Source of the DNA: a plasmid
Length of the DNA stretch: 64,000 nucleotides
Reading direction: 5' to 3' (one strand)
Assembly (NCBI RefSeq): GCF_988243305.1
Contig: NZ_OZ547137.1
Positions 24,901 through 30,900 of the stretch are shown in pieces (position 1 is the first letter of the stretch; the number at the start of each line of letters is the position of its first letter). The position numbers were made by a program.

Positions 24901-27900
24901 GACATTGTTCATGAGTTATTTTTCACGTAGCACACGCACTGTTTATGGATACAGGTATTCTGACCTGAACGCCCGGATCCTTCCACGACAATAAATCGCA
25001 GCACGCGGATCCTTTTGTTTGCTTATCACGCATTATTGCGGGTAAAACCAAATACGTAAAGGCGCGTTTTGCAGCAGGGATCCCGTCTTAAGCCAGTCGT
25101 GGCGCGGGCTGATGGCTGGTTTGCCGTCTTTGGGAGAAATGGGGTAATGCCAGGACAAACAGGATCGGACCAAAAGGAAAAGGAGCAGGGAAGAAGGAGG
25201 ATGCGCTACGTGAATTCTGACCTGGTACACCCCTGTAACCCTGCCAGTTTTCACGTAGCGCAATGTGGTTGCTACCTAACACCAGTTGAGATGAGAGCCG
25301 GCATCCTGATGCTGGATTAATATACGGATAATAATAATTTCAGTATCAGTCTGCAGAAAATAAAGCATATGTCGTTCAACGGATAGTGCGAATATGTATT
25401 CCCCCAGTTCAGGGCGGGGAGTACCGATATTATGATCACTCATAACCTGAAAAATATCGGATATCTGATTAATATATTTGTCTGCTTGATCCTCACCAAA
25501 ATGGCGGCACCCGTAATACCAGATATCCTCCAGATCCTGACTGGCTTTCGGTGTGAGTTTAACGGTTTTCACCGGCCCCCCTCGTGCCAGCTTTAACTTT
25601 CTTCAGGAACGCATCTTTTTCCCACACCACAGGTTCACCGCTGCTCAGGCCTTCTGCCAGTAAATCCCGCAGGGCCTGGAGACGTGACTCTGCCTGTTTC
25701 TCGCGCAGGAGACGAAGTGACTCGCGGATTACTTCACTCTGTGTACGGTAATCACCTGATTCTATGAGAGATTCTATGTACTCCCAGAGTTCATCTCCGA
25801 GAGCAACTGTCATTGTTCTGGCCATATCAAGCCTCGTGATTGTAAGTTTAAATTTTACATGCAGTTTATTCGATACTCAAAGGTGCTTCCAGTACAGAAC
25901 ATTTGGGAGAATTGGGGTAATGCCTGGAACAGACAGATACGGAGAAAAACCCTGCAGATAACCTTATACGACAACTGAAGGTGTCTGATGCCATATTCTT
26001 AGCTACTTCTCTGTCTTCAGGCGGCTTAGTCACAACATAAGACCGATGCATAATAAGCATATTTTTTCATGTTATGGTCTTGTTCATGCATGAACTATTA
26101 TCTATTCAGTCACTTTTAAAGTTTTATATCATACTGCATATGATATATATCATCTCCTATATTCAGACTAAAAATATTATGACGATGGTCAAATGAATTT
26201 AGTGAAAACGCTACCTAAAACAATATGCTTATGATATAACTTATCAAGAATATGCGACAATCTTCTTGAAAGGTTACGGAGAAGAGTCAGATAATGAAGT
26301 GTTATAACTCATTCAGCTTTTTTATGTTCTCTTTATAGTAAAACTAGGAGATTAAGATGAATCAGAAGTGGAAGACGTTAATTATTTCATTATTAACACC
26401 ATCAAGTATTATATCAGGGATTGCGTTGATAGTTCTCTGGGGATATTTCAGTCGCCTGGGCCGACTAGATATTTTCTTTGATGTAATGAATATTAAAAGC
26501 ATCTTGGTATTGGTTTGTTGTGCAACTATACTATCATTGGCTATGATAGTATTTATCTTTTTTATAACCTCTTTTTTTATACCCGTAGTTATTCCTCAGG
26601 ATATAAATAATCTTCCTGCTTACAATAAGATTCAGGGTAATTTTTTATCTGTGATGATGTTATCTGGCATGTTCCCCATGGCCTTTATATATGTGTTATA
26701 CTGTGCATTTGATTTTGATCAGAATGTTAAAGATAACTCTGGCTGGTTATCTATTGCAAGTATGGGTGTACTGATAGCTGTTATTTTAGCCATAGTAAAT
26801 AAGAGGTATCTTGAATATGACTTATCGTTTAAAAACAATAGAATGAAACTGTTGAGACGTGTTCAGATCTATCTTGTCATTCCGTTGTCTATTGCTTTAC
26901 TGGTGCATCTTCAGTTAATTCCTCTGGAGATAGTTTTTAGGAATATTGCAACTTCAGATAAGAGTGTTAATTTCAAAGTGATAGCCGAACTGGCTTTCAT
27001 GTCATATTTTATCTTTCTTCTGACAATGCTTCCTGGAGTCATTTATCTGAAAATGAATCCACAGCATAAATTTTCAAAAAGAATTAGCTATTCATTTATC
27101 GCATCCTTGATGTTATTATTAATAATATCGACTCAAATAACCGTGTTACCAGTGATTTTTACCCATTCCGTTATTAAGCTATCAGGTATAAGTGACTTCA
27201 AAATACATAGCTACATTATTAAATCAAGTGAATATCCTGAAGAGTTTTTTTCCAATGCAGCATGGGATAAAAAAAATATAAAACCGGGGGATTATTACTC
27301 TGTGCAGGCTGTTTCTATGTTTACGACAAACCAGTTTATTCTCCTTTGTCCTAAGGATATTATAAAGTTTTATCGGGAAAGCTGGAAGTTCGAGTTGCTT
27401 AATGTAGACTTCGATATAAATACCAGGAAGAAACTCCAGGAAGAAGCTGCATATTGCGTACCAATTTCTGCAATATCTGTAAAACGATGGGATATGCCTC
27501 TTCAGGGCTCGAAACCCTCAAGTTAGAAGGCAACTAGGGCGACTGTATTCTGTGACGAAATGAATGGCTGGCTCACTATAATAATGAGCGAACCCATCAG
27601 GGAAAAATGTGCAATGGGCGGACGCCAATGGAAACGTTACTCGATGGAAAACGCATCTGGGCCGAGAAAAATTTAAGCCAGATGTAATCTGACAGATACC
27701 TGTATAAATAACCGATAACTGTCAGATCAGGTCTGAGCTAATACATTTCAATAAAGGTACTTGCTCGCGCTCTGTCATTTTCTGAAACTCTTCATGCTGC
27801 ATTTCGATTTTCCTTCTAAGATCATAACTCGCATACCTGTTCTTTTTATGTATATCTATATCTATTTTTGTGACGAGTTCAAACCACAATGTTCGCGCTC

Positions 27901-30900
27901 CCCATGCAGCGTTATGAAACATTTCCGCAACGGCTATAGAGTCTGTATTAACTGCTTCAGTCATGTAGTCGCTAATACGTTCAGCGGTAATTTTCGTTAT
28001 TTCATCGTAATTCATTTTATCTCCTACAAGATTATTTAATGGAATGCAAAATATCTGGTCTGATAATAATGTTCCAGAATTAATATCTGCAGGCTATGTT
28101 AAGTTGTCCCCACACACAATCTACCTGTTTTCTCGTGTGTGCCACAGACGCAATACATAAATAGTCTGGCCATTAATTTCGTAACGGATTTCGTACTCGC
28201 CAGCAAAAATCCGTCTGACCTCCCTGGGTTCAAACTGAAACAACAGTTCTCCCATACGTGGATGAGTTAACAGAATGACCGGTGCCTGTGTCAGGGACTG
28301 TACCGTTCTGGCGGCAACAGGTTTACTGGCCAGCACCAGAAAATCATATAACCGCGACAAATCAGAAAGCGCCTTACTGGTCCACTTCAGTTCCATCAGC
28401 GTGGCACCGGTAACGGATTGTCAGTACTGAGGCTGTCCGACCAGGCCTGTACAGCCTGATGGTCGATAACCTGTCCGGATGTCACATCGTCCAGGGCTTC
28501 CAGCGTCAGGCGATTACGCTCCTCCTCCTGGGCAAGCCATGCAGAAAGCGCCTGTTTGATAACCCAGCCCCGGGAACGTTCCAGTCTGGCGGCCATCTGG
28601 TCGACTTTATCAGCCATAGGTAATGGCACATGCGCGGTAATTACTTTTGTTGCTTGTGCGGCATTGTTTTTCATTTGCATATCCGATTAGTTGTTAATCA
28701 TATTTAATCATAGTGATTACTTTCAGACGGAACAAGGCAAATAATGCGCGTCAGCGCATGTAAGGCGGCATACGGAGGTTACATGTAGCACAGGTGTAAA
28801 ACCGCCGAAGCCCGGCGTAAGCCGGTACTGATTGATAGATTTCACCTTACCCTTTTCCATCCTGCTAAGCCACACCCGCTTTCAGCTATGAGAGAGCCTT
28901 TGTGCGCAGTCGGGGCGTATCTCCGCGTTAGCGGGCCGTGAGGGACGCTTACGAGCGTGTATGAGAGACGTACAGTGGTTTCTTCTAGCTTTTATTTCCT
29001 CTCAGGTCCCGAATTGTCAACTTCTGAATCGTGGGGGCCCCTTTGGGGTGACGATTCAGTGGTTGACAACTGCACATAAAACACCCTGTGTGTGGGGTGA
29101 TGGTTCACGTAGTGGTCCATCGCCCTGCCAGGGGTCAGTCGCCACTACACCATCACTTGAGAAAGAGAAGGGACTTGCTGTTATGTCAGTGAAACTTTGG
29201 TAAATTATCGTATCCTGTGGCAGGATGATGGTTTGTTACAGCATTGCAATTCATTAAAAAGGGGGCTTACGAAGAACAGTGGATATGATCGCAACTAAAA
29301 CGCCTGCCATTGATAAAGCTGCCCGAATATTTCATTTTATTGCCGGGAAAGGCTCTGCCACCTACAGTGAAATTCACCAGAATGTCGGATTGCCTCAAAG
29401 CACCACCTCGGCCCTGCTTGCCAGCCTGACCACGCATGCCTTTCTGAGACAAAAAAATGGCCGGTATTATCTGGGGCTAATCTTTTACGAGCTTGGTAAT
29501 AAAGCCATTCAGGATTTTGATTTTCGTGAACTGGCTGAAGAGTCACTCGTTTTTCTCCGTGACCGGACCCGTCTTGCCTGCCATCTGGGCGTTCTGGATG
29601 GTTCCACCGGCATCTATCTGGCGAAAAAAGAAAGCCAGAATGCGATTATCGTTCGCAGCTGGACGGGAAAACGACTTTCCCTGCACAGTTCCTCCCTTGG
29701 GAAAGTGTTGTTGGCCTGGCTTCCGGAAGACCACATTGATGCTCTTTTACCCACAGAACACCTTCCTGCGTTTACTGCCCGGACAATTACAACACGTAAA
29801 GCGTTGAAAGCTGAGCTGGAGGTGGTCCGCCTGCAGGGATGGGCGTTTGATAATCAGGAAGATGTCGACGATGTCACCTGTATTGCCGCGCCGGTATTTA
29901 ACAGTGATCAGGCCGTTGTTGCCGCAATAAGTATTTCCGGGGTTCGTTTTCAGATGCCTGAGGAAAAAATACCTGAGTATGCGAACGCGGTGATGAAAGC
30001 CGCTGGCATGATGTCTGAAAAGTTATGCGGTATATGACTGGTCCGCTCACAGGTCATGATAACCCGTGAGCGGCGTTCGGCCTTACGTTGCTCTGACGCG
30101 GGAGGCTCCGTGTTTTGCCCACAACGCAGTGATCACCGGCACGACAATGGCGGTGATCACCACACAGGATGCCACCAGAGTGGTGGCTGCCGGTGCGGCC
30201 TCAGCGAAGTCCGGCGCGATCTCGGCTACCAGCAACGGAGTGGCCACGGCAGCGCCAGCAGTACTCGATGCGGCAATTCCAGCCGTGCCACGGCCCTTAC
30301 CCAGCATGATATCCATGATTATCAGTGGTACGCCTGTGATAACAATGACTGCCAGAGCCATAAGAATACCCAGCAGTCCGGTGTCGATGATGACGCCAAG
30401 ATTAATGGTATTCCCCAACGCAAATGCAAAGAATGGGATCAGACTTTTGGTGGCCCTGGAAAACAATTCCCGAAGTTCGGGATCAAGATTACCCAGCAAA
30501 AAACCCACCAGAAAGGGGATCAGGACGCCGGCGAGGTGTTCAGGTTCGAACGTTGCCTGCCCGGCGGCCCCCAGAATAATCATCGTCATCAGGGGGCCGG
30601 ACTCAAGCGAGATAAGTACAGAAGCACCGGCTTCTTCTTTTGTGCCGTACTCCTGCATCAGGGAAGCATAAAGCCCGGCATTGGTCATATCCATCGCCGC
30701 AACAATCGCCAGAACAGATAAACCGGCAAAGAAACCTGTTTTTACCATTCCCCCTTCCGGTAGGAGCTGGGCAAAAACAAAGGCACAGACCCAGGCAGTG
30801 GCGATTTTTGTGGCTACCAGTGTGCCAGACTTTTTGAGAACGGTCCCGGTTGCACTGATTTTAATGGAGGCGCCCATACAGAACAGCCAGACAGCGAGGA

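Follow-up and report, generated by a model that had tools for sequence, protein, structure and literature searches.

What do two toxin-antitoxin (TA) pairs contribute to a plasmid when they lie together within 3.4 kb, and do they protect the genes between them? The question is raised by positions 25276-28680 of a 64,000-nucleotide stretch of the plasmid contig NZ_OZ547137.1 (assembly GCF_988243305.1), hereafter called the window, which belongs to a large pAA-type plasmid of enteroaggregative Escherichia coli in the IncF group (FIA/FIB). The plasmids closest to the window are pRHBSTW-00670_2 (CP056358.1), pNORD58_1 (NZ_CP139842.1), and the pAA plasmids of E. coli O104:H4. An earlier note on this DNA had placed two TA pairs in the 3.4-kb stretch, one ParDE-like and one RelE/ribbon-helix-helix (RHH)-like, and all four genes are indeed present as minus-strand open reading frames (ORFs) whose hidden Markov model (HMM) scores are above the curated cut-offs. 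Both pairs are located just downstream of the RepFIB initiator gene and the recombinase gene int and have the generic layout of type II TA systems, with antitoxin and toxin sizes of 88 and 98 amino acids in pair 1 and 94 and 91 amino acids in pair 2. The stretch probably consists of two independent type II TA operons, each of which starts with the gene for an RHH antitoxin and continues with the gene for a toxin from the ParE branch of the RelE/ParE superfamily; pair 1 is rare in its intact form, pair 2 is widespread and conserved, and the segment between them is unprotected. Both pairs are known, ordinary systems, and routine annotation of related records already gives them their proper names.

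In pair 1, the antitoxin gene parD (25559-25825, minus strand), which encodes an 88-residue RHH protein, lies upstream of the toxin gene parE (25276-25572, minus strand), which encodes 98 residues from a GTG start; the two genes overlap by 14 nucleotides. The toxin matches PF05016 (7e-12; 46.2 bits against a cut-off of 23), and the antitoxin matches both PF03693 (9e-17; 61.6 bits, cut-off 21) and TIGR02606, the Caulobacter-type ParD model "antidote_CC2985" (79.2 bits, cut-off 46.2), in agreement with the ParDE-like character proposed for this pair. The sequence matches of the toxin in the PDB are ParE toxins, i.e., ParE1 of the Caulobacter crescentus ParD1-ParE1 complex (3KXE), 7YCS, 7R5A, 8C24, and 6X0A, with which it aligns end to end at E-values of 4e-11 to 2e-3. 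Similar to the Caulobacter-type ParDE, pair 1 forms an antitoxin-first operon with overlapping genes, whereas its clade (152 database proteins at E-values of 1e-5 or below, many of them fragments) is narrow, being found only on plasmids of Enterobacteriaceae and tied to the RepFIB repA-int unit. A GAGG Shine-Dalgarno sequence can be read 8 nucleotides 5' of the parD ATG. A consensus scan placed a promoter-like site (TTGAGT-17-TAAAAT; 25852-25880, minus strand) upstream of parD, and a repeat scan found an A/T palindrome (25844-25855) adjoining its predicted -10 element.

The RepFIB replication initiator gene repA (22916-23893, plus strand; 325 amino acids) was recognized from the RepB-family initiator annotation at the equivalent position in relatives, and int, which encodes a tyrosine recombinase of 246 amino acids (24172-24912, minus strand; PF00589 at 8e-15), lies between repA and parE. 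RepFIB plasmids of Salmonella have these genes in the same order, repA-int-parE-parD, and in intact form. Comparison with the intact Salmonella alleles gave dN/dS values of 0.16 for parD and 0.17-0.27 for parE, which indicates that both genes of pair 1 are under purifying selection. Pair 1 is best read as the addiction module that resides in this conserved unit of the RepFIB backbone. Two contigs of Salmonella RepFIB plasmids contain parDE as a tandem duplication (3971-5297); in the upstream copy, ParD is frameshifted (57 amino acids) and ParE, with 98 amino acids, has diverged, and the downstream copy is intact.

The allele present in the window is rare. The parDE locus was found on 684 PLSDB plasmids, only 2 of which match the window at 99% or higher (445 match at 90-95% and 235 at 80-90%), and in 575 of the 5,426 complete E. 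coli genomes (578 records), where again 2 records match at 99% or higher. The parDE DNA of the window is identical to the copy on pNORD58_1 (WP_024227598.1). In all nine other alleles sampled from plasmids of E. coli, Klebsiella, and Citrobacter, parE is inactivated, and no toxin coding sequence is listed in any of the 39 PLSDB records taken as a spread sample. The common E. coli allele has two nonsense codons in parE and a 2-bp insertion in parD; in the allele of Klebsiella, Citrobacter, AW1.7, and p888-46E9a, parE is disrupted by frameshifts and a stop codon, and parD is intact. Because the lesions differ between the lineages, parE must have been inactivated independently at least twice.

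The intact genes coincide with a patch of divergent sequence. When the window was compared with pJBEHAAB-19-0176_1 in 200-bp bins from 23.9 to 29.3 kb, the identity was 98.5-100%, except for 25100-25720, where it fell to 80-90%. This patch of approximately 620 bp contains the intact parE together with most of parD and the spacer on the int side, and it is 87-90% identical to all of the other sampled alleles; the donor consequently lies outside the sample. The simplest reading of these identities is that recombination replaced the allele in a backbone whose usual copy is dead, with the direction of the exchange inferred from the allele frequencies. A more specific proposal, which we put forward only tentatively, is that the intact parDE is an active gyrase-poison module that has re-entered the E. 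coli RepFIB backbone by gene conversion of the ~620-bp patch, replacing the dead allele, so that addiction, anti-addiction, and resurrection would follow one another in a cycle at a single locus. The destruction of parE on at least two occasions and the retention of an intact ParD in the Klebsiella/Citrobacter lineage are the basis for such a cycle.

A deletion of approximately 500 bp in parE of the pAA plasmid of O104:H4 strain C227-11 (NZ_CP011332.1, 75,079 bp) was also considered and rejected. The missing stretch, which corresponds to 24962-25460 of the window, falls exactly at the point of linearization of that record and is present in the O104:H4-type pAA records of 75,544 and 75,669 bp; it is probably an artefact of assembly or of trimming at circularization, not a real deletion.

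Pair 2 is built on the same plan from different components. Its antitoxin gene (28396-28680, minus strand; 94 amino acids) comes first, and its stop codon overlaps by one base with the start codon of the toxin gene (28121-28396, minus strand; 91 amino acids) in the sequence TGATG; the gene overlaps of both pairs suggest translational coupling. The toxin belongs to the ParE family (PF05016 at 1.4e-16; 61.2 bits against a cut-off of 23). The antitoxin has RHH_1 (PF01402; 1.2e-10, 41.4 bits) as its sole family in the Pfam and NCBIfam searches, in which neither of the ParD models (PF03693 and TIGR02606) was matched. On this sequence evidence it is a CopG-type RHH protein with a C-terminal extension, for which the label ParD is wrong. 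The PDB searches with the toxin, either as a single sequence or as a profile of 16 sequences, returned only 7ETR_C (ParE_SO) and 6XRW_A, the latter from a Pseudomonas ParDE complex, and no chain of RelE, YoeB, or HigB at E-values up to 0.1. The best PDB matches of the antitoxin are CopA_SO (7ETR_A and 6IYA) and 6XRW_B, i.e., the partner chains in the complexes matched by the toxin. The RHH half of the description "RelE/RHH-like" thus stands, while the RelE half does not; by sequence, the toxin is of the ParE type, and "RelE/ParE" fits it only at the level of the superfamily.

The best solved match to both proteins of pair 2 is ParE_SO-CopA_SO from the Shewanella oneidensis prophage CP4So, as 7ETR and 6IYA have been identified (PMC8706911). 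The relationship is distant (E-values of 4e-4 for the toxin profile and 1.5e-3 for the antitoxin), but the two systems share the combination of a CopG-type RHH antitoxin with a ParE-family toxin, and residues 15-89 of the antitoxin align with CopA_SO, including the Trp-containing C-terminal tail that binds the toxin. A promoter-like site (CTGAAA-18-TATGAT; 28694-28726, minus strand) was found upstream of the antitoxin gene by the consensus scan, and its predicted -10 element is overlapped by two TTAATCATA direct repeats with a 10-bp spacing (28694-28712; repeat scan). These repeats stand in the place of the CopA_SO operator, GTANTAC(N3)GTANTAC, which was not found upstream of pair 2 and has six matches with two mismatches elsewhere in the window; they are a plausible candidate for an RHH operator, although repeats this short can occur by chance. 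Another comparable system is ParDE-I (YacAB type) of IncI and IncF plasmids, which likewise combines a plasmid-borne toxin of the ParE superfamily with an RHH antitoxin, occurs on IncF virulence and resistance plasmids, stabilizes plasmids, and induces the SOS response (PMC6614396). ParDE-I has been reported on 153 plasmids, compared with 2,504 for pair 2, and the two are separated here by distribution, not by sequence comparison.

In contrast to the rare intact pair 1, the 560-bp operon of pair 2 is widespread. It was found on 2,504 PLSDB plasmids, nearly at full length on 1,452 of them, whereas approximately 1,000 retain only a 240-bp remnant of the toxin gene; the carriers include bovine E. 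coli plasmids and the ~220-kb plasmids of Shigella flexneri and S. dysenteriae. Homologs of the toxin (n = 2619) retain 74-81% identity across Proteobacteria, from E. coli plasmids to Aeromonas, Pseudomonas, Thioalkalivibrio, and Paramesorhizobium, and 45 of the 91 columns are invariant in the alignment of 16 sequences. The antitoxin is 100% identical in the four related plasmids that were compared.

Several observations weigh against the interpretation of the two pairs as working TA operons, among them a published toxicity assay. When the RelE/ParE toxins of the O104:H4 plasmids pAA1070/pTY2 were induced in LB, neither of the two hosts showed significant toxicity; in M9, a less than 10-fold effect was seen for one construct, which the paper does not identify, and CcdB killed more than 1,000-fold in that study (PMC11950199). 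These toxins are direct orthologs, located at the same position beside RepFIB. The primers of that study were mapped onto an O104:H4 pAA record to identify the cloned genes: "relE/parE 1" is the ortholog of the 91-residue pair 2 toxin, the antitoxin of which is identical to that in the window, and "relE/parE 2" is the local allele of parE. The former differs from the window toxin at two residues (89 of 91 identical; A27V and Q51L in the window), and these substitutions fall at the near-invariant position 27 and at position 51, which is Gln in 14 of the 16 aligned sequences. In the pair 1 toxin, an Ile occupies the position of the conserved His in the "(I/V)LHQ" motif of solved ParE toxins, and Ser is found there in its close relatives, i.e., in the pair 1 clade. 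The AlphaFold2 model of the pair 2 toxin, built from the 16-sequence alignment, was poor (pLDDT 63) and gave no significant Foldseek match in the PDB; its top matches were ParE complexes, but with a best E-value of 0.68 they are not counted as evidence. The promoter scan found no more matches in the region than in shuffled sequence, although the position of the parD site is as expected. Moreover, the repeated loss of parE in relatives means that the plasmid backbone persists without it.

The two published negatives differ in what they say about the window. In O104:H4 pAA, parE contains two in-frame stop codons and parD is frameshifted, both being flagged as pseudogenes by PGAP, whereas parDE is intact in the window. 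Since the "relE/parE 2" clone is this pseudogene allele, the negative result bears on pair 2 and not on the intact parE of the window. The "relE/parE 1" construct carried approximately 30 nucleotides of native upstream sequence in which a Shine-Dalgarno sequence is not evident, and weak translation may therefore have caused the negative result of the pair 2 toxin; this explanation is our own. According to the earlier note, the toxins of both pairs should be assignable to families and should inhibit growth; pair 2 has its family assignment, but its ortholog, which differs at 2 of 91 residues, did not inhibit growth in the published induction assays. The E. coli plasmid ortholog differs in this respect from ParE_SO, which inhibits growth and causes filamentation (PMC8706911).

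If the two operons work as type II TA systems, their mode of action can be outlined. Directly upstream of each antitoxin gene there is a predicted promoter-like site with repeats; the RHH domain of the antitoxin dimer would bind these operator repeats at its own promoter, and the C-terminal tail of the antitoxin would sequester the toxin. In a daughter cell without the plasmid, the labile antitoxin would decay, the ParE-type toxin would poison DNA gyrase, and growth would stop. This addiction mechanism is expected to hold for pair 1, and killing by the parE product of the window is a prediction from its sequence. For pair 2, on the other hand, killing is open to doubt, as induction of a nearly identical toxin had no toxic effect; this pair may be attenuated, may act conditionally, or may have a mainly regulatory role.

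The segment between the pairs (25865-28086; 2.2 kb), delimited by its GC content and by the junction sequences, has a GC content of 35%, compared with 49% for the window, and TGCAG microhomology at its bounds. It contains the orphan membrane gene that had been noticed there, a plus-strand ORF of 389 amino acids (26357-27526) with many hydrophobic segments in the first ~275 residues, and a minus-strand ORF of 97 amino acids (27722-28015); searches of Pfam, NCBIfam, and PADLOC gave no match for either. The earlier note held that two addiction modules flanking these genes effectively lock them in, and at least 225 PLSDB plasmids do retain the int-parDE-island-pair 2 arrangement over at least 80% of a 5.3-kb query. 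The comparative data nevertheless contradict such locking, which we regard as highly improbable. The O104:H4 pAA plasmids lack 25865-28086 and retain both flanking TA loci, which abut each other there; an IS1 element interrupts the membrane gene in pNORD58_1, the parDE of which is identical to that of the window, and IS2 or IS3 insertions occur near the segment in other relatives. The deletion and the insertions show that the intervening genes are dispensable and mutable. One of the two supposed locks, parDE, is dead in nearly all of the plasmids that keep the arrangement, and a deletion sparing both TA operons incurs no killing penalty; post-segregational killing selects for the whole replicon and not for the DNA between two modules. 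In plasmids without the segment, the predicted -35 element of the parD promoter, which lies at the left edge of the segment, is lost as well.

Less remote, but still unlikely, is the explanation that both pairs are inert relics and that the plasmid is kept by its multiple replicons, two partition systems, recombinases, and ccdAB. Plasmid pAA1070 is stable (less than 1% loss), with CcdB as the sole toxic product detected (PMC11950199), parDE is a pseudogene in most of the related plasmids, which are abundant all the same, and the truncated remnants of the pair 2 toxin point in the same direction. The purifying selection on both genes of pair 1 speaks against this explanation, and neutrality is hard to reconcile with a pair 2 toxin that is conserved across distant Proteobacteria and an antitoxin that is invariant among the compared plasmids; in addition, the parE reported as non-toxic was the allele with internal stop codons, and the possible weak translation of the other construct, which we infer from its upstream sequence, lessens the force of the second negative. 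Function mainly in conflicts between mobile elements, i.e., in abortive-infection phage defence, plasmid competition, or anti-addiction, seems to us more unlikely again. It would account for the presence of defence genes 3-12 kb away (a SIR2-HerA pair, which an IS3-family element splits, and an AbiJ-like gene), for the intact ParD beside a destroyed ParE on plasmids of Klebsiella, Citrobacter, and part of E. coli, a pattern to be expected of an anti-addiction antitoxin, and for the arrival of the intact allele through recombination, which would suit a selfish module that confers a competitive advantage; however, no PADLOC model matches either toxin, and the conserved position beside repA and int is better explained by replicon maintenance. 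The interpretation as two independent TA operons with an unprotected segment between them is thus the one that we prefer.

The published verdict that the RelE/ParE toxins of pAA plasmids are non-functional was reached, in the case of one toxin, with a clone that contains internal stop codons, and it should not be extended to plasmids with an intact parE allele; if an active parDE has indeed re-entered this backbone, the verdict would be inapplicable to the present plasmid. Counts of TA modules overstate the capacity for maintenance, since orthologs may be dead or non-toxic, and the relatives show that flanking TA modules give no protection against deletion or insertion of IS elements. Both pairs belong to well-described families, and their O104:H4 pAA orthologs have already been assayed, so they have little import for basic biology; of mild interest is only that a rare, intact allele of parDE lies on a recombinant patch.

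Other maintenance functions are found upstream. The ccdAB operon, which had been placed about 12 kb upstream of pair 1, was found at 12.1 kb, beside a divergent double partition locus, with ccdA (12932-13150, minus strand; PF07362 at 8e-27, 93.8 bits) adjacent to and co-oriented with ccdB (12625-12957 including an upstream TTG start, minus strand; PF01845 at 3e-32, 111.2 bits). The ccdB product is 101 amino acids long from the ATG, and the ORF reaching the upstream TTG has 110 codons' worth of residues (110 amino acids); the same alternative start has been discussed and judged probably not to be genuinely used (PMC11950199). The O104:H4 ortholog of CcdB was toxic in experiment, was neutralized by CcdA, and did not affect a gyrA462 host, which is resistant (PMC11950199). 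A ResD-like recombinase gene (11815-12624) was detected by HMM between ccdB and the partition locus (9167-11677), which has two divergent arms. One arm, on the minus strand, encodes ParM (9564-10535; PF06406 and PF21523, 218 and 151 bits) and StbB/ParR (9167-9595; PF10784 (StbB), 103 bits), the protein pair of type II (ParMRC) partition systems; the other, on the plus strand, encodes a 214-residue ParA with ParA/MinD-type P-loop families (10764-11408) and a 91-residue RHH partner (11402-11677; RHH_1), the protein pair of type Ib systems. Both assignments refer to the proteins only. The two partition systems described earlier are therefore present, and with both TA pairs and ccdAB in place, the general view of redundant maintenance functions on a virulence plasmid holds. 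The double locus has been likened to the double par locus of pB171 in the literature, a resemblance taken from the description and not from sequence, and the partition operons of the window look complete, whereas those of pAA1070 were called incomplete (PMC11950199). An Rfam scan of the window gave no RNA of the hok/sok type.

At its left end, the window carries aggDCBA, which encodes aggregative adherence fimbria I. Among the complete E. coli genome records, none spans at least 80% of 12-30 kb; the window is thus a mosaic that is unrepresented among them. In the nearest relatives, vapBC is located between ccdAB and RepFIB; here, HerA and SIR2 genes occupy that position, no direct search for vapBC having been made. 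The SIR2-HerA anti-phage defence pair (13816-17991) consists of a HerA-like ATPase gene (13816-15624, minus strand) and a SIR2 gene that is split by an IS3-family insertion into a C-terminal part (15621-16112, minus strand) and an N-terminal part (17467-17991, minus strand; PADLOC SIR2 at 2e-63), with the transposase ORFs in between (16268-17439, plus strand). Together with the region 19429-21029, in which a gene for a DUF2971 protein (19429-20253) is followed by one for an AbiJ-like abortive-infection protein (20289-21029; Abi_C and AbiJ_NTD5), it makes up a small island of defence genes, which lies between RepFIB and the ccd/par region on the RepFIA side. The part of the window from 29 to 64 kb is a metabolic, IS-rich region in which relatives annotate no TA system. 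The Rfam matches in the window (39393-39509, 48039-48161, 48691-48807, 53253-53339, and 55866-55982) are three ALIL pseudoknots, one copy of the isrC small RNA, and a group II intron domain (53253-53339), and an ltrA reverse transcriptase/maturase gene is annotated in a close relative at the region matching the intron domain.

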